Origin: a virus
Lineage: Duplodnaviria > Caudoviricetes
Length of the DNA: 64,000 bases
Reading direction: 5' to 3' (one strand)
IMG/VR virus record: IMGVR_UViG_3300033076_000897
Span: 1-64,000 of that record
Shown here one piece after another: positions 1,353 to 42,335 of this stretch. The notes under the pieces were generated by a model. The model was not told the origin of the DNA and did no database searches. It saw only the letters and a list, made by a program, of their open reading frames with translations. Each line of letters opens with the position of its first letter. Within the stretch, counting starts at the first letter, position 1. The translations under genes and the position numbers were made by a program.

Positions 1353-3212
1353 TTATTTCTTGAATTTTGCCATGATAGCTTCAGTAACTGAAGACATATC
1401 GTAAGGTAAAGTTGACTTAGACTCTTCTGCAGATTCTTTGATGATTTCAACTTTTTCCATTACAGGAGCAACTTCTCTAAGGTCTCTGGTTTGCCAGAAG
1501 TTTCTAACTTGGTATTCAGTTTCCAATTTAGCGTACTTAGATTGAGCGATGATTTGGTTCTTTTTGCTTTCAGACAATTTGTTCCAAGTCTCTACGTACT
1601 CAACAGGCATCGCAGTGATGAAGTAAGGTTCGTTGATTGATTTGTTAACCTCGGTTACCATACCTTCCATTAAAGAAACGATTTGGCTTTCTGCTACGAA
1701 ACCAGAAGTTTCAACAGCAGCTCTAACTTTGGTCTTGATTGATTCTTCAAGAGCGTTGTATTTAGCTTTAGTTTCGCTAGATACTAATCTGAAGAAGTGA
1801 GGATCGTTGTTTGCTTTTGCAGTAGCTTTCTCGATTAGAGCATCCAATTTAGAAGAGATCTCTGATTTGTAAGCTTCAACAGCACCAACTACGTCGTTTG
1901 TTGCGTTAGCACCTTCAGGTTTACCAGGATTCTTGTCACCTTCTTCCGTACCGATTTTTGGAGACTTGTCCTTTAATTCGCCTTTGATGTCTTCACCTTC
2001 AACACCAGCGTCTTCGCCTTCAACTTTTCCTTCAGCTGAATTGTCACCAACTTTGTCAAGTTCGTTTTTCTTGTCAGCTTCGTCGTGAGCTTTACCGGCT
2101 TCTTCACCAGCTTCTTCAACGATCAAGTTTTTGTTGATAGATTCTGCGATGTACTCTGCGTACTCAGAAATGTTCTGAAGATTTTCTTTTAAGTAGTTTA
2201 CGTAAGTCTTAAGGTTGGCGCTAGTCTCAACATTGTTGTCAAGATTTTCTGCCAAGTAGTTTGCGTACTCTTTAACCTTTGAAGTAGATTCAGCAACATG
2301 TTCTGTGAAAGAAATGTTCTGATCTAATTTTTCTGCTAAGTACTTGCTGTACTCGATGTTTTTGTCAGCTGATTCAGCAACGTGTTCTGCGTACTGAATG
2401 GTCTGATCTAATTTCTCAGCAACGTACTCTACGTATTCTCCAAGTTTCTTAACGTTTTCTACAATGTGATCATTGTGTGAAACAAGACCTGAAAGTTTCT
2501 CAGAAAGTTCAGCTGAAGAATTGTCAGAAGTAACTTTAGACAATGCTTCTTTGATAGCCTTGATTTCTTCGGCAAGATACTTTGAGTAGCTGTTGAAATC
2601 GTCTACGTTAACGTATGATGTCATAGTGCTCTCGTTTGTTTTATTTTGATTTTCGTTTGTTTTAGTTTCAGGAACTTCAAAGAGCAAGAAAGTGCCGTCG
2701 TTGTCGAAACCATAAGCTTCGTTAACTCTTTTTAACTCGGCGTTTTCGAAACCTGGATCAGCAACTAAGTCGTATGTAAACAACTGTTTGATCTGAACTG
2801 TACCGTCTTCTTTAACAGAACCCGCAGCTCTTGAAGAAATTTGTAAGGGAACTCCAGCGTCAACTAAAGCTTTGGCTTGACGACCAGCTTCAGTATCCAA
2901 TAATCTGATTCTTCCTTTAACTTGTTTAGTGTCTTTATCGTACGTTAACTCTTCAATGACGTGAGAAACGTTCTTCAAAGAAATGTCAAAAGTTTGAGGG
3001 TGATCCAACTCACCTAAAAGCTTTGAAGATTTAATTTTAGTCTGTAAAGCTTCGATCTGTGGTAGATATTCGCTCTCAGTATAGATTCTGTGGTTTCGAT
3101 TCTTCTTGTCGATTTCACCGAAAACGCCTTCCAATACGTATTTGTCACCGCTTTCGCCAGTTGTCAATACTGATGCAGAACGCTCTAGAATCAATAAATT
3201 TTTATTTGACAT
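1353..3212 (-). CDS. gp21: Prohead core protease (gp21-like) fused to a long coiled-coil scaffold-like region
   Basis: LGELDHP, ISSRAAGSV and YDLVADPGF catalytic motifs in the first ~160 aa; ~14-aa repeats (YAEHVAE/YSKYLAE/YANYLAE/YAEYIAE) in the middle; lies between portal and capsid genes. Confidence 0.9.
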   Translation of the reverse strand: MSNKNLLILERSASVLTTGESGDKYVLEGVFGEIDKKNRNHRIYTESEYLPQIEALQTKIKSSKLLGELDHPQTFDISLKNVSHVIEELTYDKDTKQVKGRIRLLDTEAGRQAKALVDAGVPLQISSRAAGSVKEDGTVQIKQLFTYDLVADPGFENAELKRVNEAYGFDNDGTFLLFEVPETKTNENQNKTNESTMTSYVNVDDFNSYSKYLAEEIKAIKEALSKVTSDNSSAELSEKLSGLVSHNDHIVENVKKLGEYVEYVAEKLDQTIQYAEHVAESADKNIEYSKYLAEKLDQNISFTEHVAESTSKVKEYANYLAENLDNNVETSANLKTYVNYLKENLQNISEYAEYIAESINKNLIVEEAGEEAGKAHDEADKKNELDKVGDNSAEGKVEGEDAGVEGEDIKGELKDKSPKIGTEEGDKNPGKPEGANATNDVVGAVEAYKSEISSKLDALIEKATAKANNDPHFFRLVSSETKAKYNALEESIKTKVRAAVETSGFVAESQIVSLMEGMVTEVNKSINEPYFITAMPVEYVETWNKLSESKKNQIIAQSKYAKLETEYQVRNFWQTRDLREVAPVMEKVEIIKESAEESKSTLPYDMSSVTEAIMAKFKK

Positions 3213-3268: not shown

Positions 3269-3613
3269 TTAGACGCCTAAACCAGCTAATGGATCTTCTT
3301 CGTCACCGCCTTTTTCTTCTTTCTCTTTCTCCTTTTTCTTTTCTGCCTGTTCAGCTTCTAGCTTTTGGTACCAAGATACAATCTTAGACATTTCTTCCTT
3401 GGTGAAAGCATTATTGCCGTAAGTTGCAAAGAAATAGTCCTTAACTTCTTCTTCCGAAGTAGCCGAAACAAGTACTCCCATAATTTCTTGAGCTTTGATC
3501 TCTTTATCGCTATCAAGTTTCATGTCAGTAACAGTTACTTGAGAATCTGGATCGTTCTTAAGATAGTCTTTTTCTTCGTTTACGAATTCGTAAAGGCTTT
3601 TAACGTATTTCAT
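3269..3613 (-). CDS. Small acidic prohead core/internal protein (position of T4 gp67/gp68)
   Basis: Between portal and protease; N-terminus MKYVKSLYEFVNE resembles a capsid-targeting sequence. Confidence 0.55.
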   Translation of the reverse strand: MKYVKSLYEFVNEEKDYLKNDPDSQVTVTDMKLDSDKEIKAQEIMGVLVSATSEEEVKDYFFATYGNNAFTKEEMSKIVSWYQKLEAEQAEKKKEKEKEEKGGDEEDPLAGLGV

Positions 3614-6830: not shown

Positions 6831-7046
6831 TTAAATCGACATAGACGGGTCGATGAAGATCAAGTTCTTTGGAACGTTATAGACCATTTCACCAACTTTA
6901 ACCTTAATCAAAGTATCGTCAGAACCTCTTGTGTAATCTAGCGCGTTTACTAAAACTGAATCCTCAGGTTTTACACCTTGGAACTCAGCTTTAAGGCTTC
7001 CGATAACATAGTTATTGACGAATTCTTCGTATAGTTTGATGTCCAT
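6831..7046 (-). CDS. Small hypothetical protein, possible internal head protein
   Basis: Coupled to the upstream ORF (TAATG overlap); N-terminus MDIKLYEEFVN resembles a capsid-targeting sequence. Confidence 0.55.
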   Translation of the reverse strand: MDIKLYEEFVNNYVIGSLKAEFQGVKPEDSVLVNALDYTRGSDDTLIKVKVGEMVYNVPKNLIFIDPSMSI

Positions 7047-7813
7047 TACAATTTAGCCTCTAGTTCTTTAATTTCTGATTCGAATTTAGTGATCTCAGAG
7101 TTGATCAAATTGTTTGCTTCTTTGATTTCTTCCAAAGATCTGTCAGCGTTAGCCAATTTTTCTTTGCTTTCTTTTAAGAATGCGATCAATGATTTCTTCT
7201 CTTCGATTGTTTCTCTGATCTCAGCAGCTTCTTTAGCAGCACCTTCTAAAAGGTCGTTCAATAAGTCTAAGTGATCAACACCCGTTTGTTCAACGATGTA
7301 TTCCAATGCTGAATTTGCAGAGTTAGCTTGGAAGAACTTATAGATTTTGTTGGCTTCGTTCATTCTTGAAACGAATACGTTGTTTCCGCTTCTCATTACG
7401 TCGATTGCGATGTCTCCTTCTTTAACAGATTCAACGAAATCGATATTTACGATCTTTTCAATGTTCTCTACCAAGTAAGTGAACATTTCTGCAATGTGAC
7501 TCTCTTGGATTCTGATGATACCTGCAGCGAACAAGAAGTTTCTCAAAGAATCTGTTGTTGCAACCTCAGTGCTATTAACGAAATATTTGCTTTCGCTAAG
7601 GTTGTAAGAGATTTTAGTTTTGCCGTAGTGCCATACGATTTCAGATTCATTAACTGAGAACGTATTTAACGCTCTAACTAATGTCATGAATTCAGCTGGT
7701 ACTGTTTCTGCCTCAGCGATAACGTCTTCAACGATTGAAAAGTTTTTACCGTTCACGTGAAAAATGTGACCGTTTTCAATTGCAAAAAGAGGCGAAAGTT
7801 TTGTATTTGCCAT
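7046..7813 (-). CDS. Hypothetical late protein with C-terminal coiled coil
   Basis: 255-aa ORF; GATATATA at 7839-7846 upstream. Confidence 0.65.
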   Translation of the reverse strand: MANTKLSPLFAIENGHIFHVNGKNFSIVEDVIAEAETVPAEFMTLVRALNTFSVNESEIVWHYGKTKISYNLSESKYFVNSTEVATTDSLRNFLFAAGIIRIQESHIAEMFTYLVENIEKIVNIDFVESVKEGDIAIDVMRSGNNVFVSRMNEANKIYKFFQANSANSALEYIVEQTGVDHLDLLNDLLEGAAKEAAEIRETIEEKKSLIAFLKESKEKLANADRSLEEIKEANNLINSEITKFESEIKELEAKL

Positions 7814-14962: not shown

Positions 14963-16156
14963 TTAAAAATCAAACAGTGATGATGAAAAAATTAGATTGC
15001 GGTCCAATGGCTTCATGTTAAGCGATGCTAATACACGATTCATTGGATCGATGATAGCCTTTTCAAATTGTAAATCGTGATCAATCTTCGGAGCAAACTC
15101 GTAAGGAAATTCTCCAGGCAAGTATGCGAACACGTCGCTCAAACCATTTTGCTCTGATACGTGATAGATCTTTAACTTCTCGCCGTTAGCAATAGCTTTG
15201 TACTTCTTCTTATATTTTGAATTGTTCAATAAGTAGTTGTAGTAACCACCTGCTTTTACGTTTGGAGGAGTTTTACTTGCAAATTGAAAGGTTTCGTAGT
15301 CATCCAAGATGTATTTTTGGATGTTGTTGGTTCTTTTATTGAAGGCAATATCGTCGATATCTGCCAACTTGAACTCTTTTTTGGCTTGACGCAAAAAGTT
15401 TACGATGCTTTCTTGCGAAGGTGAATCACTCTTAAAGATGAGTTGCAATGCCTCGTTAAGCTTTTTTCTAGCGAAGGTCGGTGTAGAACTTTGAATAACT
15501 TCAAAACCGATGGTTTTAATGTAGCTCGCTCGATCGTATCGTTGATCTATCTTGAGTTTATCAGTCCATGCGATGTCTTGAATGTACTTCTTTTTCGCCA
15601 TCCAGATACCTGAGTGAGCGATAGTTTCAAGTTCAAAGACCAAGAAGTTATCAGTATTGGTGACTTCGGCATATTTCTCCATGCATTTTACGATGTAATC
15701 TTTTAATCGATTATTGTATACGTGCATGATGAAATGATCAATGCTTAATTTATCACCTACAAACTCTGTAGCTTCGTACATTTCTTCGAACCTCACGTAA
15801 CACGAGTCAGTATCGATGTAGATAACTGCTGGCTTTTCAAGCCTACGATTGACTTTGATGTTTAGCTTTTCATGAAGCTCTTTGTCCTTGTGATAAAACT
15901 CGTTGAAGTAACGATTTAAAATCTTCTCTGAATAAAGAATCGCATTCTTACCTTGAATGGTGATAGATTCTGCGATGTCTATATTGAAAAAATGGAACCA
16001 CTTGTTTCCAAAGGCTCCGTAGATTGAGTTAAGTGTCAACTTAACAGCTTGCTCGTAGGCAGTAAACTTGGCCGATTCAGTTTCGAGCTGATCGGCCAAG
16101 TTCTGCAATTCATCGAGACTCAAAGAGTCCAAGTCTATGTTTAGTAGATCGGACAT
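14963..16156 (-). CDS. gp43: Family B DNA polymerase, C-terminal subunit (fingers, palm motifs B and C, thumb)
   Basis: KLTLNSIYGAFG (motif B), YIDTDS (motif C), KKKY, C-terminal SLFDF clamp-binding-like tail; lacks exonuclease and motif A. Confidence 0.93.
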   Translation of the reverse strand: MSDLLNIDLDSLSLDELQNLADQLETESAKFTAYEQAVKLTLNSIYGAFGNKWFHFFNIDIAESITIQGKNAILYSEKILNRYFNEFYHKDKELHEKLNIKVNRRLEKPAVIYIDTDSCYVRFEEMYEATEFVGDKLSIDHFIMHVYNNRLKDYIVKCMEKYAEVTNTDNFLVFELETIAHSGIWMAKKKYIQDIAWTDKLKIDQRYDRASYIKTIGFEVIQSSTPTFARKKLNEALQLIFKSDSPSQESIVNFLRQAKKEFKLADIDDIAFNKRTNNIQKYILDDYETFQFASKTPPNVKAGGYYNYLLNNSKYKKKYKAIANGEKLKIYHVSEQNGLSDVFAYLPGEFPYEFAPKIDHDLQFEKAIIDPMNRVLASLNMKPLDRNLIFSSSLFDF

Positions 16157-20892: not shown

Positions 20893-20900
20893 TATATATC
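20893..20900 (-). promoter_or_regulatory. GATATATA motif upstream of nrdB
   Basis: Exact late-type motif, but followed by a terminator-like hairpin. Confidence 0.5.
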
Positions 20901-20925: not shown

Positions 20926-22335
20926 TTATTGCTTCATTTTAGCAATTTTTTCTCGAACTTCATCGGCTCTTGTCGATAGCTTATACGATAAACCTTTGTA
21001 ATGTTTTCGCTTTGCGTACAAATCGTTTAAGATTTCTTTCAAAATAGATGTTTCTGTCTTGTAGACTACGCCATTTTCACATACAATGACGCTTTTATCA
21101 GCTCTTCTTTCTTTAATGTCAGCAACATTAATTTTTTCTACGAATACATCAGGTGAAATATTGAACTGACGCATAATTGATGGATAAAGAGAAGCAAAGT
21201 CAAATGCAGAAACACCTTTGTGGTAACCTGCGATCGGATCCTTTACGAAAGCACCTTCATATTGTTCTTCCTTTTTAGAATCTTCGCGAGGTTCTGTACC
21301 GATTCGTTGATCCCTTAAAGCCAACGTTCTGGCTAAAAGCGCTTCAGTAACTGCTACTGGAGAAGCTGCTTTATATAACGGCATTTGGGTGATGTTGGCC
21401 AAGGTCAATAGAACCTCCATTGATTTCAACTTTTGATCAATGTAATAAACCAGCAATGAGTCGACTACGTTGTAGTAAACAAACTTAGTGAAGTCAGATT
21501 GGTAGAGCTCATTGAATGATCCAGAGAATTTGATCTTCTGTACTTTCAAGACTTGACTCGCAACATAGTCCAATCGATTTGACTCTTTTACTTTTACTGA
21601 ACGATCGTATTTGTCGTAAAGTTGCATGTAGTCAAGAATGCCCATGTGCAGCGGACGAGAGTCTGTGTTGTCAACTTCTTTGGTCTTAGCCGAATCCTTA
21701 ATATCGATCTGGAGGCGCTTGCAACGATTGACAATGTATTGCCAGTCGTAGTTAATAAAGTTCCAACCTGTCATCATAGGGAATTTAGGCATGAACTTAT
21801 AGATGAAGGTGTACAACATATCGTACTCGCTCTTGAATTTGATGTACTTGAATGTCCACTCATCACCGAATTCTTTAACGTATTCGTTGGTGTCCTTTTC
21901 GATCTTAGCAATGCGATCTTCAGCCAAATCCTCAAGACCCAAAACAATTGCTTGTTTGTTTGGTGTAATGATAGAAAAAGTCAAGATGCGACTCTTGGCT
22001 TCTTCTGGTTTTGGGAAACCATCGACGATCTCGGTCTCAATATCGACGAAATACGTCTTTGGCATGTTGTAAGCATGGATCTCTTCGCGATCTCTTTCAG
22101 GAAGAGAATCCATAAAATAGACTAAAGAAAACTTGTTAAAGTTTCTAGATGCACCGAGTTTGATAGACTTACCGTCCCAATTCTTGTAAGTAGGATGTTT
22201 CCCACGATCTTTATCGTCGCAAACGTACCAATTTTGGAACTCATCGATCGGGTATCTTTTAAATGCAACTTCACCCTCTTTGTTGTAGTAGCTAACAATG
22301 ACTTCGTTTTTTCTTTGTTCAATATCCAGTAGCAT
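20926..22335 (-). CDS. gp43: Family B DNA polymerase, N-terminal subunit (3'-5' exonuclease and palm motif A)
   Basis: DIETE (ExoI), GWNFINYDWQY (ExoII), YNVVD (ExoIII), YEGAFV, FDFASLYPSIM (motif A); ends shortly after the KRKHYK fingers helix. Confidence 0.93.
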   Translation of the reverse strand: MLLDIEQRKNEVIVSYYNKEGEVAFKRYPIDEFQNWYVCDDKDRGKHPTYKNWDGKSIKLGASRNFNKFSLVYFMDSLPERDREEIHAYNMPKTYFVDIETEIVDGFPKPEEAKSRILTFSIITPNKQAIVLGLEDLAEDRIAKIEKDTNEYVKEFGDEWTFKYIKFKSEYDMLYTFIYKFMPKFPMMTGWNFINYDWQYIVNRCKRLQIDIKDSAKTKEVDNTDSRPLHMGILDYMQLYDKYDRSVKVKESNRLDYVASQVLKVQKIKFSGSFNELYQSDFTKFVYYNVVDSLLVYYIDQKLKSMEVLLTLANITQMPLYKAASPVAVTEALLARTLALRDQRIGTEPREDSKKEEQYEGAFVKDPIAGYHKGVSAFDFASLYPSIMRQFNISPDVFVEKINVADIKERRADKSVIVCENGVVYKTETSILKEILNDLYAKRKHYKGLSYKLSTRADEVREKIAKMKQ

Positions 22336-31306: not shown

Positions 31307-31314
31307 TATATATC
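31307..31314 (-). promoter_or_regulatory. Putative late promoter GATATATA
   Basis: Exact motif 22 nt before ATG 31284. Confidence 0.72.
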
Positions 31315-33226
31315 AGTGTTTTTTAGCCACATACATCTCTTTCTCATCGTCCCATTCAGCGTGATCCAAGTTAGCTGCATAAACGTTTACTGGAGTAGGC
31401 CATACGTTACCATCTTTGTCTTCTCTAAAAGAATAACCCGAATTCAATAGAGGCTTCATCAAACTGGCTGTTTCAATACCGTCTGTCATGTCGATCTTGT
31501 TGCCTTTGGTATCGACGTTAGCGTTACCAAATAGCTGACCTCTACAGTCTTGGTTGTGAACGTGAGCCAATAAAAGTGCTTGTTTAGCGTGTAGCTCTAA
31601 TGATTTTCTAACTGTTTCAATGTGTTCTTTAGTGCCTTTGAGTTTGCCACCCTTTGTCCAAATATCAATTTGATCTTGGGCCCAATCTGCTGGAGTTTTA
31701 CCTTTAGATCCTGCATCAAGTGGTTTTCCGTCCCATAGGCCAGCTTTTTTAGCCCAATCTTCTATTTCAGCCAAATTCTTTTCGGCTTCTTCGTGGTTTG
31801 GCTTTCTAGTCACAGAACCCATAACGTTACTATAATTGTCAACCAATGCTGTCAATTTTTGAGAAGTTTCTGGATTCTTAAACAGTGTTTGTTCAAGTTT
31901 TGCTCTTGCAGCTGATGCAGCTCCACCGTCTTTTTTAACAGATAGACCACCTTGATTCTGTAAGCTTACTGTGTATTTCATGTTAGTTGCAAGCTTAGTA
32001 GAATATTCTGGATCTTCTGGATCTAAATCTGATAGGTCTGGGAAACTTACTAAGTCTGAAACTGTCATGTTTGCGCTCGCTGGCAAATATACTGGGTATC
32101 CTTTTTTGATCATGTTTAAGTAAACCATAGACTCTGCAAGATCCGAAGATCCCTTTCTAACAGTTTCAATACTCGCCATGTCTTCGATAACCTGCGTTAC
32201 CGCCTTTTCGTATTCTTCTTGATCTTCAATTGAACTTAATTTCTTAACGTTTTCAATCAATTTTGATTCTGCTTTCGATGGCTTGTCGCCTATTTTCTCG
32301 GCTAAAGCGTTAGCAATTTTGTCAGGGTACCCTGATAAAACTTTTGATCTTCCTTCTGGAGTACTAACATCTGCACCTTCGATAGTTTCTAATACCTCAA
32401 CATCACCCTTTAAATTAGCGTATTGCTCTAGGATCATATTGTTTCTTTCTATAGAAACTGAGATTCTTTCGGCCATTGCAGAAAGTTCTTTTTCAGATTT
32501 GTCTGGGTGTGCAGATTTTAATTTAGATCTCAAATCAGAAGGTAGCTCCAATCTTTTGATGGTGTGACTACCGAATTTGATAGATTCAACTTCACCGTCT
32601 TTGTTTTTTTCAACGGTTCTTTCCAACTTAGCAGATTTTGGATTGATCTTGTTGGGTGCTACGTCTTTGCTTGCGATTGTAAGTTTATCTGCACCAGTTG
32701 TAGAAGGATCTGTTAATTCTACACCGTTGTCTAATAACTGTTGCTTCAATTCTTTAGCTTGAGCTGAATCACCTAAATCAATTTTCAAACGGGCGTTTTG
32801 TTTAAAATTACCCGGCTCTTTAGCAGCAACATAGATAGCAAATTCTCTGTCTTTTTTTGCAATCTTAAAGTACTTATTGAAAGTTGCTAAATCTTCTTCG
32901 CTTGGTTTTTGACCAGTCAATATAGATTTTAGTGTGTTTTCAAATGATTTTTGATCATCTTCACTCTCAAAAGCTACTTGATCTTTAAAAGAGTCGTAAG
33001 TTTTTTGAATCTTATCGGCTTTAACTTGTACAGATTTATTTGCTTTATCCTCGTCTGATGCAGCTTTTACTGTTGTTTTTTTACCACCTATTAAAATTTC
33101 AGTGTCGGGTCGCATTTTATGTTTAGATTTATAAACTAAAAACGCTTCTTTATCTGTAAATTCAACTTCGTTAAGTTGTTGCATTGCAACCGCAAATCTT
33201 GTTCTAATATCTCCGTAGGTACTCAT
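31313..33226 (-). CDS. Hypothetical late protein with a possible PD-(D/E)xK-like nuclease core
   Basis: DLAES...VYLPASAN..VSDLV...GLSVKK arrangement; LNE site near the N-terminus. Confidence 0.55.
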   Translation of the reverse strand: MSTYGDIRTRFAVAMQQLNEVEFTDKEAFLVYKSKHKMRPDTEILIGGKKTTVKAASDEDKANKSVQVKADKIQKTYDSFKDQVAFESEDDQKSFENTLKSILTGQKPSEEDLATFNKYFKIAKKDREFAIYVAAKEPGNFKQNARLKIDLGDSAQAKELKQQLLDNGVELTDPSTTGADKLTIASKDVAPNKINPKSAKLERTVEKNKDGEVESIKFGSHTIKRLELPSDLRSKLKSAHPDKSEKELSAMAERISVSIERNNMILEQYANLKGDVEVLETIEGADVSTPEGRSKVLSGYPDKIANALAEKIGDKPSKAESKLIENVKKLSSIEDQEEYEKAVTQVIEDMASIETVRKGSSDLAESMVYLNMIKKGYPVYLPASANMTVSDLVSFPDLSDLDPEDPEYSTKLATNMKYTVSLQNQGGLSVKKDGGAASAARAKLEQTLFKNPETSQKLTALVDNYSNVMGSVTRKPNHEEAEKNLAEIEDWAKKAGLWDGKPLDAGSKGKTPADWAQDQIDIWTKGGKLKGTKEHIETVRKSLELHAKQALLLAHVHNQDCRGQLFGNANVDTKGNKIDMTDGIETASLMKPLLNSGYSFREDKDGNVWPTPVNVYAANLDHAEWDDEKEMYVAKKH

Positions 33227-35061
33227 TATTTGCTAGTGATAAATTGTTCGAATGTTAAAATGCTTTCGGCGGTTGCCATAGAAAGTTCGAGCTTAGATTT
33301 TAGCTCATCGTACATGCTGTGTAGTGATCTTGGTGTCAACTTCTTAAAGCTGTTATACTCATCGTTGATCATAGTGTTTCTCACTTGCGTTGCAGAAATA
33401 TCGTCGTCGCCTCTTTTGATCTCGTGTAAACCGAAATCTGGACGAACGTTTAATTCTTCTCTGTACTTTTGATTGTCAACCATGTAACCGTAAGCTTTCA
33501 ATCTATCTGATCCAGTACCCCAAAGAACTGGCTCGTATTTAGGTCTTAGTTGATTGAACATAAGATCGATAGCTGCTGATGGTACAACGATCACCTCTTT
33601 TAAGAAAGGATATTCTTTCTGTACTCTCTTGAACATTTCAATCTGTGTGTCAACGTCGTAAGGTCTTTTTACAGCGTCTTCGGCTTTAGCAGTCTTTGAC
33701 TTCACTAAGAAGACAACAACCGGGTAACCGTTCTCTTTGTAAAGAGTCTCTAATACTTTAACGTGACCAAGCGTAAATGGTTGGAATCTACCAACGAAAA
33801 TATTTACTGGCTGGGCACCTTGATCTTTGTAATCAATTTTTAAGGCTTCGGTAACGTGAGTCACTTCTGTGTCCTTAATCTTTTTTTGTCTGCTGAAAGA
33901 ACCGAAGTCCAATACGTCTGTTTCTGTAATCTCTTCCAAAACTTTAGCTTCGATCTTTTTTACAATATCGTTCATCATCGACATCATGTCGCTTGAAATA
34001 ATATCAGTCTCTTTGTTTCTGATCTTTCTGTAAGAACCCAACATGATTTTAAACAATTCAGCTAAGACTGGATTGTCAACATATCTTAAAGTTTTCTCGT
34101 TGGTGATGAACTTAGTGTTCAATTTGAAGTCTTCCCCGTTAGCAAAATCAGCTGGATCAAAACTTGCCCCAATAAACTTGTGAGAATTGGCTTTTACATA
34201 ATCGTTAAAAACGCTAGACATTAGTTCCAAATATCTGGCATCTTGACCTTCAGAATTCAAAACAACTTCGTTAAAATTGTAGCTGCTTAAATAGGTAGTC
34301 AGGTCCAAAATGGTAATTTGGTACATATCACTTGGCTTTCTATCGGATCCACTGGTGATTCTGCGAAAATCTTCAAGCTTATATGATTCGTAATCGTGAC
34401 CATTGACAAACGTAAGAACCAGACCATCAATTTCCGAGTCCAAAGATTCGTTTAGCGTGGTATTGAATGCATCTGGTTTGAACATGTTGTACATGTATCT
34501 GGTAAAGGAATCACCCATGAACTTCTGGCTGAATTCTTTATCGTTCATCGAAAGAACTTTAATCAGATCCTCTCTTGAGTGCTCCATCATCATCCCATCA
34601 AATAAGATAGGTGGATTTTCAACTTCTAAGATACCTGCCCATTTCTTTAAGACTACAGGGTCGATGATCACTTTTTTGATCTTCTTGCCGTTCATAACAT
34701 GAATGTGAGTCAAAACCAAAAAGTTTTTCGGTAATCTGTCGTATTCTATGTCAACTGGCTTTGTGTTAGGTAGGTAATCGAAACCAAACTTCCAATCTTC
34801 TGGCATTTCATAGAGAGCTTTCTCTGAAATAGACTGCATGTGTTTGATAGCTTTTTCATAGTATTTGATGATTGTTCTGTCAACCAAATCCATGGGATCC
34901 GCTTGGTTTGACTTGAAATACATCAATTTGTCACCGATTTTCTGACAATGAAAAGCGCTCGCCGAGAGTTTCTCGGTCACCAACACTCTGGACTTAAGTA
35001 ACTTCTGAAAATCTTCAGAGTTGCTTTCAGCGAAGTGGTCTCTTAATTTTTTTAATGCCAT
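33226..35061 (-). CDS. Degenerate ligase-like domain fused to an HxGH (cytidylyltransferase-like) nucleotidyltransferase
   Basis: C-terminal GRFQPFTLGH, GSDR, ISATQVR; N-terminal VTEKLSAS, DGLVL, YKL. Confidence 0.75.
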   Translation of the reverse strand: MALKKLRDHFAESNSEDFQKLLKSRVLVTEKLSASAFHCQKIGDKLMYFKSNQADPMDLVDRTIIKYYEKAIKHMQSISEKALYEMPEDWKFGFDYLPNTKPVDIEYDRLPKNFLVLTHIHVMNGKKIKKVIIDPVVLKKWAGILEVENPPILFDGMMMEHSREDLIKVLSMNDKEFSQKFMGDSFTRYMYNMFKPDAFNTTLNESLDSEIDGLVLTFVNGHDYESYKLEDFRRITSGSDRKPSDMYQITILDLTTYLSSYNFNEVVLNSEGQDARYLELMSSVFNDYVKANSHKFIGASFDPADFANGEDFKLNTKFITNEKTLRYVDNPVLAELFKIMLGSYRKIRNKETDIISSDMMSMMNDIVKKIEAKVLEEITETDVLDFGSFSRQKKIKDTEVTHVTEALKIDYKDQGAQPVNIFVGRFQPFTLGHVKVLETLYKENGYPVVVFLVKSKTAKAEDAVKRPYDVDTQIEMFKRVQKEYPFLKEVIVVPSAAIDLMFNQLRPKYEPVLWGTGSDRLKAYGYMVDNQKYREELNVRPDFGLHEIKRGDDDISATQVRNTMINDEYNSFKKLTPRSLHSMYDELKSKLELSMATAESILTFEQFITSK

Positions 35062-35071
35062 TTTAGTAGTT

Positions 35072-36346
35072 TTATCTTCCGTATTTAATGATGCCCATCA
35101 ATTGATTGATGGCAGCAAATGTACCTGTAAGCTTATATATTTTGCCCTTGTACTTAAAGACCAGACCTTCAGTTGGCATGATTGAATCGATGCCACCGAT
35201 TCTGTTTAATCTGTCAAGTTCCCTTTCAACTTTAGCAATTTGACTAAGGTCACCGTTTGTTTTGATCTTGTCGGCTTCTGTCTTGATCTGTGTGTGTAAT
35301 CTTTGGGCTTCTTGTTGTGGGTTTAGAGCCAATAGGTTTGAAACGTTCTTAAGAATGGTTGATCCCAATTCCAAGAAGATGTCTTCAAATGGTCTAATGT
35401 TTTCTTTTTGTTTACCCTTTAAATCCTCTTTGTCGAATTTATCAAAAGCAGCTTTTTCTTCAGGAGATAGAATCTTAGCCAAGTCTCTAACGTTTAGAGT
35501 CTTCTTGTCTTCGTAGGCCCATCTCAATAGCATGCCTCTTTTAATGTCAGCCGGGACATTGGGGAACATTTTTTCAATCTCCTCTTTCCACCAGTTTTCG
35601 TGATACAAAGAAACTGGATCAGCGTCTTTAAGACCGTATTTTGACTGAAGGGCCACAATTTTACTAATGAAGTAACCTTTCTTTTCGTCGAAATCTGGAA
35701 TCTTGCTGATGTTTAGTTCCTGTGGTGGAATGATGGTAAAAGTCTTTTGTACGTGGTTGCTAGTGTCCTGTAAGATCTTTGCAAGATCTTTGGCAGCTTT
35801 TGCGTTGGTAGTTCCGTCTTCGATGGTAACGATACCGTGAAACTGAATCACGTCTTTGTTGTATGCAATTACGTTTGCGTTGCCTGTGTAAATAAGCTCC
35901 ATGTTCATGAAAGCTTTACCGTTTTGGAAGAAATCTTCTTGAGTCTTAGCTGGCAACTTTTGTAAAGAAGCTGCTAAATCTTCAGCGGCAAATGTAAACG
36001 TTTTTCTAACACCATCCGATGGGTGATTAGAGAACATAGAGATGATAGCAGCCAAATCGATAGGGCTTGCAAGCTGTCCTTTGTTTCTAGCAAACATCAC
36101 TCTACCGTCGATCATGGTCACAAATAGGTTTTGACCATCTGTTTTTTCGGTAGGGGCCTCTTCAAAGTTAAGATCACCTTGTAGACCTCTATCGACAAAC
36201 ATTTTAAAGTCACCAAAAGTGAGTGAGTTATCATCGAAAGGGTGCATCATGTGACCTGCAGCACCACCTTCCATAATTAGATCAAAAGCAGAACCGATGA
36301 GATTCTGCTTTTCGATCAAGTATTCTTTAATACTAAATAGTTTCAT
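35072..36346 (-). CDS. ATP-dependent ligase-fold nucleotidyltransferase-like protein
   Basis: GGAAGHMMHPFD, TEKTDGQN (KxDG), NMELIY, EGLVF..KGK.YKLTG. Confidence 0.7.
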   Translation of the reverse strand: MKLFSIKEYLIEKQNLIGSAFDLIMEGGAAGHMMHPFDDNSLTFGDFKMFVDRGLQGDLNFEEAPTEKTDGQNLFVTMIDGRVMFARNKGQLASPIDLAAIISMFSNHPSDGVRKTFTFAAEDLAASLQKLPAKTQEDFFQNGKAFMNMELIYTGNANVIAYNKDVIQFHGIVTIEDGTTNAKAAKDLAKILQDTSNHVQKTFTIIPPQELNISKIPDFDEKKGYFISKIVALQSKYGLKDADPVSLYHENWWKEEIEKMFPNVPADIKRGMLLRWAYEDKKTLNVRDLAKILSPEEKAAFDKFDKEDLKGKQKENIRPFEDIFLELGSTILKNVSNLLALNPQQEAQRLHTQIKTEADKIKTNGDLSQIAKVERELDRLNRIGGIDSIMPTEGLVFKYKGKIYKLTGTFAAINQLMGIIKYGR

Positions 36347-36360
36347 TGTTAGGGTTTATT

Positions 36361-37959
36361 TTATCCTAGACCTGAAGTCAACATTCCGATTGCAGCTCCA
36401 AAGTCTCCGTCAACTTTAGCTACGATACCGTCGATGGTTTCTTTAGCTTTAGCCTCGTCGTAATCTTCTCCGTGTGCTTTCTTTAAAACTTCGATTGCAT
36501 ATTCTCTGAATTGCTCTTCAGTTTTAATGTCTTCTTCGTTGATCTCAGTCGCTTCATTCATCTTCTTAGCAGCTAACTTTGAATCCTTCTTAGCAACGTT
36601 GTCTGTATAAGAACCGTCACCCCAGAATGCTACGATAGCGTCTGTATCAGCTGTTGAGTGGAAACCAGGACCAGCGTTGAAAATGTCTACGAACTGTAAA
36701 CTCTTATTTGTTTTGATCAAGTCTTTTGCGAAAGACATTGCTTTGTTCTTGTCGTTGAACTTCTTCATGGCTCTAACACCGTCAGAATAGTGAACTTCGT
36801 ATGCTTCGTTTACAGATTCTTTGATACCTAATTCTCTTAGGCTTTTTACTTGCTTTCCTTTTCCTTCACCTGTTTCATCAGCGAACCATAAAAGACCAGC
36901 TTTGATCAATCTTTCGTAAACTTCAGAAGCAACTAATTCCCACTGGAAAGAACTTGAAGTGTTGTACCAAGTTTCGGCAGCGTACTCTGGATCGATCCAA
37001 CCAATACCTCTTTTGATATTAGTTTCCATATCTTTGTAGTCCATTTCGAATTGCTTAACAGCACCTTCGGCAACTACTACTGATTCTACTGCCAATTCTA
37101 AATCTTTGTCTTTTCCAGCAACAGCTGCATCCAATTCAGCTTCTAAAGCTTTCTTCTTAGCAGTCATTTCTTTTAGATCTGCAAGCAATTTTGCTTTAGC
37201 ATCACCTTCTGCAGCCTTCCATTCGGTTGCTGTTGCAGCCATTTTAGAAGTAATATCAGACCAGTCTTTTTGAATTTTGTTGATTGATCTACCTTCGTTA
37301 AGGTCTTCGTTGCTTTCGTTAACGCTTTCAAAAACCTTTAACTCTTGATCTTCGTAAGCATCCATGTAGAACCACTTGTTGGTAGCTTCGTCCCAAATAT
37401 AAATGTACTCTGCTCCAGCGCTGTTTCTAACCTTTCTAGCAAAATCTTGGATTGCGTCCATTTTACCAGAGTTAACTGAATTGCCTTTTTCGCCACGGTC
37501 TCTTCCGTAGAACATTGTCATTTCGTAATCTGGGTTAGCGAAATCGTTTTTAGGACCCAATTTTTTACCAAGGAAAGAAATACCAGCCTTACCTAATTTG
37601 ACTAGCTCTTTTGCTTCTTTACCACCAAAGTGTCTGATCACATCTGCGTTATCACCCATGCTACCATAGTGCAAATAAACTGTAGTGATGTTACCTTTTT
37701 TATCAGCTACACCGATTTGAGCTCTGGTAGATTCATTGATAGTTAGACTTACGTCAACTGACTCTGCTAATCTAGCAAAGAAAGCGTTTCTAACTTCTTC
37801 ATCTAATTCGCTTGGGCTAGCTACACCATACTCTTTTAAAAGTTTGCTGTAAGATTCGATTGATTTGGCTTGACGATCAGCAACCTCTTTCATTTGCTTA
37901 ACCTTGGTAGCCTCTTCTCTTAATTGAGAAAACGATTTGAATGTATGGAGTTTTTCCAT
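36361..37959 (-). CDS. Modular putative internal virion (poly)protein
   Basis: Distinct compact modules separated by INE/VNE/LNE/VAE/MNE linkers; late promoter upstream. Confidence 0.65.
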   Translation of the reverse strand: MEKLHTFKSFSQLREEATKVKQMKEVADRQAKSIESYSKLLKEYGVASPSELDEEVRNAFFARLAESVDVSLTINESTRAQIGVADKKGNITTVYLHYGSMGDNADVIRHFGGKEAKELVKLGKAGISFLGKKLGPKNDFANPDYEMTMFYGRDRGEKGNSVNSGKMDAIQDFARKVRNSAGAEYIYIWDEATNKWFYMDAYEDQELKVFESVNESNEDLNEGRSINKIQKDWSDITSKMAATATEWKAAEGDAKAKLLADLKEMTAKKKALEAELDAAVAGKDKDLELAVESVVVAEGAVKQFEMDYKDMETNIKRGIGWIDPEYAAETWYNTSSSFQWELVASEVYERLIKAGLLWFADETGEGKGKQVKSLRELGIKESVNEAYEVHYSDGVRAMKKFNDKNKAMSFAKDLIKTNKSLQFVDIFNAGPGFHSTADTDAIVAFWGDGSYTDNVAKKDSKLAAKKMNEATEINEEDIKTEEQFREYAIEVLKKAHGEDYDEAKAKETIDGIVAKVDGDFGAAIGMLTSGLG

Positions 37960-37987: not shown

Positions 37988-39496
37988 CTATATATCTCCG
38001 TCGAACTTCACATGCTTCACGGAGTACTCAAACTTTTGCTCTTTATAGATTGTTATCCTAGCCTTTGAGTGTTTCATAAGGTAATTGTCCCATTCGCCGT
38101 ATCTTAGATCGTCAACAAAGTCGATGATGTTTACACTCTCTTTGGACTCGTGCTGTCTTAGACCACGACCAATAGACTGTCTAATGATGACTTCGCTTTT
38201 GAACGATTCAGTAAAGAAAATGTTGTGAATCTTTTTGATGGAAATACCTGTAGAAAATGTACCGTAAGACGCAACAATAACTACGTCTTCACCTTGTTCC
38301 ATTTTTCTTTTATATTCTTCCCTAACTTCGGCATCTGTACTGCCATCGACGTAGTAAACCTTCTTTTCGCTATCTCTGCGTAGCTTCTCGTATAGCTTTT
38401 TACCATGTTCAATGCGGTGAAAAAGGACCAAACTATTGCGTGGTATTCTGGAAATGACGCTACTAATAAAGTTGAGACGAGCTTGGTTGTTAATGATGTA
38501 ATTTTGTTCCAGAGAGAAAACATCTTTGCTATCGTATTTATTTGAGGCTAACTCGTAGAAAGCCTTTTTTGCTGATTCAGGAGCATAGTCCATCTGAATG
38601 ACCCTAACTTTACAACCAGCAATGTGACCTTCTTGCTGTAAAAAGTTTGCCGTTACTTCACTGATCACAGGACCTGTGAAACTCATTAGAGTTAATCTGT
38701 CCAATGTGCCAGGTTTTGGAATAGTACCAGAAAGACCAAATCTATATTTGGCATTGGTACATTTTTGTAAGATGGTCTTGATTGATGCTGATTTGGCCTT
38801 GTGAGTTTCATCGACCATTACGCAATCGAACTGCTCAAAATATTCTTTGGGCTTTTTAACCAGCGATTGGTAAGTTCCAACTACCACGTTTCTATTGGCT
38901 TTGATGGCCTGCCCAGAATAGATTTGTTGTACTTTGATGGGTGTTCTGTTTCTGTAATTGTACTCGTCAAAATCCTCAGTGGCTTGAACAACCAACGAAA
39001 CGTTAGGTACAATGAAAAGAATCTTCTTGGCTTTTTCTTTCTCTAACATGTAAGAGATCACCAAGAAACTGATTAGTGTTTTACCAGCAGAGGTAGCTAA
39101 TTCAGCCAAACACTTTCTGAATTTTAAGATGTTGAAAGCTGTGTCTATTTGATAGTCACGAGGCTTAATCTTTGAATCTTTATAGTAATCGTTAACCCAC
39201 GCTTCAAACTCTTCCGCTTGTATGGATCTATCAAAGATGCTAGTGATACCGTTCAACCGTAGTTCGAACTTGTACTCCTTGCACATTTGCATGACTTCTT
39301 TCCACAACCCAGCAGGAATCCACTTGTTGTCTTTTACGTAGCAAACGTAACCGTCCCAAAGCTTCTTTTTCACCAATGGGTGAAACCTCCAGCTCTCGAT
39401 TCTTCTCGTAAAAGTGATGTTCAATTGTTCTAATTCAAGCTCACTAGCTTCATCGATAGAAAGAAATTGACCATCACCGGTTAATGATAGTTCCAC
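37988..39496 (-). CDS. uvsW: SF2 DNA helicase UvsW
   Basis: PRDYQ, ATSAGKT, DETH, GLSGT, STGISIK, QSIGRGLR. Confidence 0.93.
   Translation of the reverse strand: MELSLTGDGQFLSIDEASELELEQLNITFTRRIESWRFHPLVKKKLWDGYVCYVKDNKWIPAGLWKEVMQMCKEYKFELRLNGITSIFDRSIQAEEFEAWVNDYYKDSKIKPRDYQIDTAFNILKFRKCLAELATSAGKTLISFLVISYMLEKEKAKKILFIVPNVSLVVQATEDFDEYNYRNRTPIKVQQIYSGQAIKANRNVVVGTYQSLVKKPKEYFEQFDCVMVDETHKAKSASIKTILQKCTNAKYRFGLSGTIPKPGTLDRLTLMSFTGPVISEVTANFLQQEGHIAGCKVRVIQMDYAPESAKKAFYELASNKYDSKDVFSLEQNYIINNQARLNFISSVISRIPRNSLVLFHRIEHGKKLYEKLRRDSEKKVYYVDGSTDAEVREEYKRKMEQGEDVVIVASYGTFSTGISIKKIHNIFFTESFKSEVIIRQSIGRGLRQHESKESVNIIDFVDDLRYGEWDNYLMKHSKARITIYKEQKFEYSVKHVKFDGDI
37989..37996 (-). promoter_or_regulatory. 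Putative late promoter GATATATA heading the 37959-31313 operon
   Basis: Exact motif overlapping the uvsW stop. Confidence 0.72.
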
Positions 39497-42327: not shown

Positions 42328-42335
42328 TATATATC
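42328..42335 (-). promoter_or_regulatory. Putative late promoter GATATATA upstream of gp32
   Basis: Exact motif in the intergenic region. Confidence 0.6.

Follow-up and report, generated by a model that had tools for sequence, protein, structure and literature searches.

Could a tailed phage load its head with several unrelated small proteins as one chain behind one targeting signal? The question is raised by a 532-residue open reading frame (ORF) in the phage record IMGVR_UViG_3300033076_000897 (Duplodnaviria; Caudoviricetes), whose product looks like a string of separate mini-proteins. The window analysed here is the first 64 kb of this 96.9-kb IMG/VR record, and all coordinates refer to it. 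In the original prediction, made from the nucleotide sequence alone, about six modules parted by clustered glutamates were described, and a swappable cassette gene was proposed in which a single packaging tag brings independent mini-proteins into the head, where gp21 releases them. In our analysis, the favoured interpretation is that the gene encodes an internal-head (ejection) polyprotein of the T4 type, whose chain would be targeted, cut by the prohead protease and its modules injected; we give this interpretation a probability of about 0.65. The modular anatomy, the shuffling of modules, the junction motif, the slot, the protease gene and the promoter-like motif are shown below, whereas targeting to the head, cleavage, retention, injection and an effector role are inferred.

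Six Modules and Five Joints in One Reading Frame

The product consists of six modules and five Glu-rich linkers, as had been claimed, and the glutamates proposed to divide it are all at their expected residues (TINE76/S; VFE211-SVNE215-SNEDLNE222/G; AVE292-SVVVAE298/G; IKE381-SVNE385/A; MNE469-ATEINE475/E; a slash marks a putative cleavage site throughout). The parts of the gene, all on the minus strand, are as follows.

36361-37959, minus strand: polyprotein ORF, 532 residues, stop codon within the coordinates
37912-37959, minus strand: N-terminal leader, residues 1-16, MEKLHTFKSFSQLREE, similar to a capsid-targeting sequence
37771-37911, minus strand: remainder of module 1, residues 17-63, helical; may be a long propeptide or a part that binds the core
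37732-37770, minus strand: linker 1, residues 64-76, LAE/SVDVSLTINE/
37336-37731, minus strand: module 2, residues 77-208, alpha/beta domain of the phrog_1987 family
37294-37335, minus strand: linker 2, residues 209-222, VFE/SVNE/SNEDLNE/, with E222 nearly invariant
37093-37293, minus strand: module 3, residues 223-289, helical hairpin with antiparallel arms, found in 141 of the 306 proteins pooled
37066-37092, minus strand: linker 3, residues 290-298, AVE/SVVVAE/
36826-37065, minus strand: module 4, residues 299-378, GIGWIDPEY domain
36805-36825, minus strand: linker 4, residues 379-385, IKE/SVNE/
36562-36804, minus strand: module 5, residues 386-466, YEVHYSDG alpha/beta domain
36535-36561, minus strand: linker 5, residues 467-475, MNE/ATEINE/, with E469 and E475 nearly invariant
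36364-36534, minus strand: module 6, residues 476-532, three-helix C-terminal module ending in GMLTSGLG

The tripeptide E-S-V occurs exactly four times in the 532 residues (at 66, 211, 292 and 381), every time at a module border, against about 0.2 occurrences expected from composition by hand calculation. The consensus of the linkers in this protein is E-S-V-x-(V/I/L)-(N/T)-E, followed by A/G.

AlphaFold modelling of the whole protein with a 54-sequence alignment gave a mean predicted local distance difference test score (pLDDT) of 67 and a predicted template modelling score (pTM) of 0.32. The confident blocks are an alpha/beta domain at residues 79-200, a helical hairpin at 226-280, a second alpha/beta domain at 386-465 and a helical bundle at 481-531, which agrees with the different character ascribed to the pieces beforehand. 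The region of module 1 is covered by helices at 10-44 and 54-67. The pLDDT falls below 50 at residues 67-77 (linker 1), 212-224 (linker 2), 282-343 and 380-383 (linker 4), and module 4 is poorly modelled because few alignment rows cover it. Folded by itself, module 2 reaches a pTM of 0.74 against 0.32 for the whole protein, so that the prediction does not describe one integrated structure. From these models, the modules are predicted to be separate, independently folding domains.

Database searches recognised module 2. The 128-position profile phrog_1987 matches residues 77-207 over its positions 2-123 (PHROGs, E 1.2e-13), and this end-to-end match means that module 2 exists elsewhere as a whole small phage protein; phrog_1987 is a family without known function. 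Moreover, gp083 of Caulobacter phage CcrColossus (143 residues) opens with MATRS..., so that its start coincides with that of module 2 just behind INE/. The statement in the original prediction that this module begins like stand-alone small phage proteins was therefore sound. A tblastn search of phage records matched module 2 only, in Caulobacter phages, and a blastn search with the gene had no match among 50,697 phage records. No Pfam family was found on the 532-residue protein at E <= 0.01, and a Foldseek search of PDB and BFVD with the whole model returned nothing at E <= 1e-3. Nothing beyond generic hairpin matches to module 3 (Z up to 9.4) came from VIA-align with the whole model, and such matches are uninformative for helices. 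For module 2 folded by itself, the best VIA Z was 4.1 and the best Foldseek E was 0.04, the latter to a restriction-endonuclease-like protein that superposed poorly, and no fold was assigned. The ESM Atlas search with module 2 returned unnamed clusters only, mostly viral.

Modules Are Shuffled Among Related Phages

The homologues comprise 558 proteins of similar length (314-927 residues) and 159 shorter ones. When each module was searched separately by BLAST, the modules were found in varied subsets, orders and copy numbers, so that the homologues are not collinear over the full length. The closest relatives of 549 residues are without module 4 and carry other inserts, and P0055 is without module 2. 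Three further proteins have the architectures M5-x-M4-M4-x-M3 (P0056, with module 4 in tandem), M4-x-M5-x-M3 (P0059) and M5-x-M4 (P0079). Module 4 also occurs singly behind short leaders, and module 5 directly follows short leaders like the capsid-targeting sequence in single-module proteins. The commonest module is module 6 (185 of the 306 pooled proteins), and the minimal gene at this locus is leader-M6-M6, 209 residues long. Amid this variation, a frame of M1...M3...M6 is conserved.

A greedy module catalogue, which is rough, contains 75 or more module families, and the 260 proteins of 200 residues or more show about 131 architectures; both counts are approximate because some catalogue seeds are composite (N12 and N13). 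The clearest single case is P0003, 97% identical to the protein studied here, from which it differs solely by one 73-residue module inserted in linker 5, between MNE/A and EINE/E. In BLAST searches with the unsplit protein, the ends of the high-scoring segment pairs cluster at residues 61-70, 191-220, 291-310, 371-390 and 451-480, that is, at the linkers. Therefore, the borders are real homology breakpoints and more than a pattern drawn by eye.

The original prediction can be judged from these results. Two of the outcomes that were named in advance as refuting it, collinear homologues and a single integrated fold, were looked for and neither was seen. Modules were expected in different combinations or free-standing, and both are seen in the per-module searches, in the single-module proteins and in CcrColossus gp083. 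Breakpoints were expected at the xNE sites, where the segment ends, the junction contexts described below and the P0003 insertion all place them. The idea of a swappable cassette gene is upheld by the number of architectures and by the one-module difference of P0003.

A Common Peptide Joint

The upstream contexts of five unrelated module families (M2-M6) yielded 370 unique sequences, in 365 of which a Glu stands at a fixed distance from the module core. Across these 365 contexts, 96% have V/I/L at P3 and 87% have A/G at P1', and P2 is most often N (59%), with T in 12%; a second E-(S/A/T) site lies 3-11 residues farther upstream in 314 of them. Downstream, the strict motif follows within 30 residues of the core in 239 of 346 unique contexts, and is succeeded by about 68 different next-module starts. 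Taken from both sides, the joint is therefore a general property of junctions and not of one module family. The genome-wide rate of the junction motif is about 1 per 1000 residues, and none was found within 30,009 residues of module cores, in which the instances are homologous and non-independent, so that this absence is no more than suggestive.

The joint, (V/I/L)-x-E followed by A/G, agrees with the rule of the T4 prohead protease gp21, which cuts after Glu at L/I-x-E. Conservation of the linkers as DNA repeats for recombination was considered as the main cause and ruled out. The four E-S-V motifs of the gene are written with different codons (GAG TCA GTT, GAA AGC GTT, GAA TCA GTA and GAA TCT GTA, with Ser as AGC or TCN), and no DNA repeats were found at its linkers; the constraint thus acts on the peptide.

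The same contexts bear on the explanation that the chain is never cut, being a multidomain protein of the polyvalent kind, packaged or not, whose Glu-rich joints are flexible acidic linkers. Polyvalent proteins are well known as variable multidomain architectures delivered with DNA: they carry 2-15 unrelated domains per chain in very variable arrangements, are predicted to accompany the DNA and to function at an early stage in the new host, and some are transferred as full-length chains, while proteolytic domain release has also been proposed (Iyer et al., 2017; PMC5512222). The linkers here are indeed flexible in the AlphaFold model. However, a flexible linker needs neither a Glu at fixed distance nor a hydrophobic P3 and a small P1' across 365 contexts, it need not equal the end of leaders that resemble the capsid-targeting sequence, and the free-standing forms start exactly at the joint. 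In addition, polyvalent proteins are assembled from enzymatic or DNA-binding domains that can be recognised as such, often together with an embedded peptidase; their characteristic set includes a zincin-like MPTase hub, ART, GNAT, nucleases and ParB (PMC5512222). No such hallmark was found here by Pfam, the modules are small with regular joints, the gene has a fixed syntenic position, and cutting would fall to the prohead protease, acting in trans. We therefore regard an uncleaved chain as unlikely.

Leaders That Resemble the T4 Capsid-Targeting Sequence

In T4, the capsid-targeting sequence (CTS) is MKTYQEFIAE, in which targeting depends on residues 4 and 7 and processing on residues 8 and 10; Asp at position 10 blocks processing. 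Among the relatives, the short leaders MKKHIPTYNEFVNE/ and MKHIKLFEDFLNE/ agree with it at all four positions (4, 7, 8 and 10). Another short leader, MNYVKSLDEFKIVNE/, is followed directly by AFEVHY..., the module starting right after Glu. The leaders ..TYNEFVNE/ and ..LFEDFLNE/ of single-module relatives fit the order aromatic-x-x-aromatic and then hydrophobic-x-Glu, an agreement of sequence pattern only. The site that ends the leaders of single-module relatives is again a hydrophobic residue, N and E, as between modules; thus, one joint links leader to module and module to module.

The genes at this locus start with M..K(L/I)x(S/T)FxxF, and M1 or its variant N78 is found in nearly all of them. 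At least eight further leader-bearing ORFs are present in the same genome. A 114-residue ORF (3269-3613, minus strand) starts with the leader MKYVKSLYEFVNE/ and has no Pfam or PHROG match; it is flanked by the portal and protease genes, where T4 has its prohead core genes 67/68. Close to the polyprotein gene, a 424-residue gene and a 433-residue gene are also leader-bearing; the former has a KTDG motif of the type of nucleotidyltransferase/ligase motif I. Next to it, a 611-residue gene (33226-35061, minus strand) has a cytidylyltransferase-like C-terminal domain (PF01467, E 2.9e-7). Both the 424- and 611-residue genes are conserved in those related loci that reach them, and their products may be packaged enzymes.

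Outside the window, at 79827-80519 of the record (minus strand), a 230-residue protein has the leader MKYIKLFEEFVSE/, an N-terminal module, an LAE/G joint and then a GNAT domain in its C-terminal half (PF00583, E 2e-7). Its neighbours at 79022-79780, a very acidic repeat protein, and at 80519-80788 have leader starts too.

The Presumed Protease and a Fixed Slot

Judged by its genes, the phage is of the T4 type. The record, for which CheckV estimates a completeness of 36%, encodes gp32, primase, UvsY, UvsW, gp41, UvsX and gp46/47, as well as ribonucleotide reductase, thymidylate synthase, a gp55-like late sigma factor, a portal and a gp23 major capsid protein (MCP). By portal sequence, the phage comes closest to uncultured huge phages in the databases, with 58% identity to LR756500 (462 kb) and a greater distance to phage PAU and the Lak phages. 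Two separate genes encode the family-B DNA polymerase, at 20926-22335 and 14963-16156, both on the minus strand (phrog_2062, phrog_1918), with ribonucleotide reductase and other genes between them.

The head genes stand in the order portal, small ORF, protease/scaffold and MCP, which mirrors T4 genes 20, 67/68, 21/22 and 23. The presumed processing enzyme and the two genes that border the polyprotein gene are the following.

1353-3212, minus strand: prohead protease of the gp21 family with a scaffold-like part, 619 residues (PF03420, E 6.7e-13; phrog_207, E 1.7e-39)
37988-39496, minus strand: UvsW-type helicase, upstream border of the slot, 69-90% identical in related loci
35072-36346, minus strand: ligase-like gene, 424 residues, downstream border of the slot, CTS-like leader MKLFSIKEYLIE, KTDG motif

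Protease and scaffold form one ORF here, where T4 has the separate genes 21 and 22. The scaffold part contains repeated VAE/S and IKE/S sites and repeated units of Y(V/L)AE.. and HVAES... A 255-residue ORF elsewhere in the window (7046-7813, minus strand) has 10 hydrophobic-x-Glu-(A/G/S) sites, the highest density of the genome after the scaffold, and no family match; it could be another processed head protein.

A survey of 80 IMG/VR loci showed a strict gene order of gp32, primase, UvsY, UvsW, the slot, the 424-residue ligase-like gene, the 611-residue gene, other genes and the 433-residue gene. The slot, which was measurable in the 69 loci with both flanking genes, ranges from 663 to 4,229 bp and is nearly always one long ORF of 209-1,029 residues that starts with a leader. 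Sometimes, one or two single-module genes starting MKHI(K/Q)L(F/Y)E(E/Q)F(I/L)NE come after the long ORF. Such separate genes, with their own short leaders (MKHIKLYEEFLNE.., MKHIQLFEQFINE..), are seen in L017, L023, L065 and L076, and in L017 the long ORF is apparently itself split in two, which suggests that CTS genes standing alone and modules of the polyprotein are interconverted by fusion and fission. A second variable slot lies between the 611- and 433-residue genes. It is occupied here by a 637-residue gene (31313-33226, minus strand), matched only in L004 at 29% identity, and in L052-L054 and L075 by module-bearing genes of the polyprotein family.

That the gene fills the slot in 69 of the 69 loci with both flanks also fits a different role, namely, that of an accessory of the prohead core or scaffold like T4 gp22, gp67 and gp68. 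Such a protein would be packaged and cut, its pieces would be degradation products that leave or simply fill the head without any effector role, and module variation would be neutral or would tune assembly. In its favour are the conservation of a frame made up of the leader, M1 (helical), M3 (coiled-coil) and M6, the minimal form leader-M6-M6, and the acidity of most modules, which is shared with T4 gp67. The T4 core proteins also have many L/I-x-E sites cut by gp21; T4 gp22 has IFE/SVN and LAE/S, much like the linkers here, and the leader-bearing 114-residue ORF lies at the gp67/gp68 position. Nevertheless, the T4 core proteins are largely helical or acidic scaffolds degraded to peptides, whereas the modules are predicted to be folded globular domains. 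The compact modules stay 60-80% identical across phages with about 70% identical UvsW, and the junction motif is not seen in the module cores searched, with the non-independence of instances noted above. Furthermore, these modules are also found alone behind a CTS in genes of their own and, beyond the clade, as free-standing phage proteins. A pure core role is thus distinctly unlikely in our judgement.

A Late-Promoter-Like Motif

One further feature lies just upstream of the polyprotein gene.

37989-37996, minus strand: late-promoter-like motif GATATATA, its end 29 nucleotides short of the ATG; it overlaps the stop codon of UvsW

This motif has 13 copies in the window, all on the coding strand, against 1.6 expected, and they stand upstream of the genes for MCP, protease/scaffold, portal, tail and fibre proteins and of the polyprotein gene; the 255-residue ORF described above also lies behind a copy. 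In 35 of 35 relatives, ATATATA is found 25-53 nucleotides upstream of the slot gene, intergenic cases included. The T4 late promoter TATAAATA was considered and set aside, as it is not upstream of the polyprotein gene, where this phage has its own GATATATA. Given the gp55-like sigma factor, GATATATA is most simply read as a putative late promoter. The motif also occurs about 90 nucleotides upstream of nrdB (20893-20900) and about 160 nucleotides upstream of gp32 (42328-42335), both on the minus strand, and is therefore not restricted to virion genes.

These two copies, together with the location among replication genes, would suit a protein that is not associated with the virion at all. The protein would then work inside the cell, its shared joints would chiefly serve in-frame recombination or be targets of a host or other protease, and its N-terminal motif would have some other role. 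Against this stand the lack of DNA repeats at the linkers of the gene, the differing E-S-V codons and a P3 that varies among V, I and L with different codons. Moreover, the motif is that of the gp21 rule and the leader that of the T4 CTS at its mapped positions. We consider this explanation very improbable.

Proposed Mechanism and Points Against It

In the polyprotein interpretation that we favour, the chain would be made late, and its N-terminal leader, probably with the helical rest of module 1, would bind the scaffold core. With the leader bound to the core, the whole chain would enter the prohead via a single targeting signal. The activated prohead protease would then cut after Glu at two or three sites per linker, removing module 1 and short linker peptides and freeing modules 2-6 as five proteins of 6-15 kDa in equal amounts. 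The freed modules would remain with the DNA and enter the host at infection, like T4 Ip1-3 and Alt, and most likely serve as early anti-defence or takeover factors. Because each module has the same type of joint, recombination could add, drop, duplicate or reorder modules in frame, and a new module would need neither its own promoter nor its own targeting signal. Host defences encounter injected internal proteins before any other phage product. The T4 proteins Ip1-3 are injected, specific inhibitors of distinct type IV restriction enzymes (PMC12373910). The packaging tag and gp21 release of the original prediction are thus backed indirectly, by the T4-CTS-like leader, the junctions that follow the gp21 rule, the gp21-family protease and the late-promoter-like motif.

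Several observations weigh against the proposal. The phage is known solely from metagenomes, and a recognised function was found for no module by Pfam, Foldseek, VIA-align or ESM Atlas. The putative mature modules 2-6 have isoelectric points of 6.7, 5.5, 4.8, 8.9 and 4.4 and are mostly acidic or neutral; only module 5 is basic, and the highly basic character of T4 Ip1-3 is not seen. This weakens a claim of homology to the internal proteins but not one of similar packaging. The leader of the protein itself is looser than those of its short relatives, with F7-x-x-F10 and then S-Q-L-R-E (L13-R-E15) instead of a tight F, hydrophobic residue, x and E, and the strict leader pattern is only modestly enriched in the genome (6 ORFs against 1.2 expected). 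The likely propeptide site of the MCP, chosen by position relative to T4, is LYE/D and has no A/G at P1'. The conserved M1...M3...M6 frame could reflect a structural core role and not cargo. Lastly, the gene sits among replication genes, outside the head cluster; the T4 ip genes are likewise dispersed, at two loci.

Relation to Known Phage Systems

The nearest parallel is offered by Ip1-3 and Alt of the T-even phages, which share an N-terminal leader with aromatics three apart followed by hydrophobic-x-Glu, and the L/I-x-E cleavage rule. The T-even internal proteins are also diverse cargo behind a conserved tag, with highly polymorphic loci, late expression (predicted here from the promoter-like motif) and small products able to pass the portal (again a prediction here). 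In contrast, each T-even internal protein has its own gene and its own tag and is cut once, while here as many as about ten unrelated modules share a single tag and a single frame, with duplicated sites between modules and variation by in-frame shuffling. The T-even proteins are described as highly basic, unlike most modules here, and no sequence homology of the modules to T4 Ip1-3 was found.

Giant phages such as phiKZ, 201phi2-1 and SPN3US have large genomes, a gp21-related protease, many internal head proteins and long N-terminal propeptides with several redundant Glu sites. SPN3US gp53 and gp54 start with ...LARE-SVE, like the linkers here. However, processing in these phages mainly strips a propeptide from one mature protein, at (S/A/G)-x-E sites with a small P3 where V/I/L is found here, and combinatorial module shuffling is not described for these three phages.

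In the hyperplastic regions of T4-type phages and in PeSL gene shuffling (PMC2839356; PMC4122927), variable cassettes between conserved core genes are likewise exchanged among related phages. The units there are entire genes, each with a regulatory cassette of its own, and what is repeated is a promoter-terminator motif in DNA, whereas here protein modules within one ORF are exchanged and the repeated element is a peptide joint.

The component parts are thus already known: CTS-tagged internal proteins, polymorphic ip loci, multi-site processing in giant phages and polyvalent proteins. In the literature on polyproteins with prohead protease or capsid targeting, no description was found of many unrelated mini-proteins in frame behind one tag, with double-site joints and shuffling in a fixed slot.

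Significance

More tentatively, and at somewhat less than even odds, the locus may represent a widespread clade of uncultured large T4-like phages with a combinatorial payload. One targeting signal and one late promoter would serve interchangeable mini-effectors that are split by the head protease; the module families, at least 60-75 in this small sample, would be injected anti-defence or takeover proteins, exchanged like cassettes, and the junction motif would be a handle for mining metagenomes. If the proposal is true, the junction motif and leader together would give a simple rule to find many packaged mini-proteins in metagenomes of uncultured large phages. The polyprotein strategy, which is rare in tailed phages, would here solve both the stoichiometry and the targeting of capsid cargo, and would offer a natural template for loading several foreign proteins by one tag, as the T4 CTS does singly.

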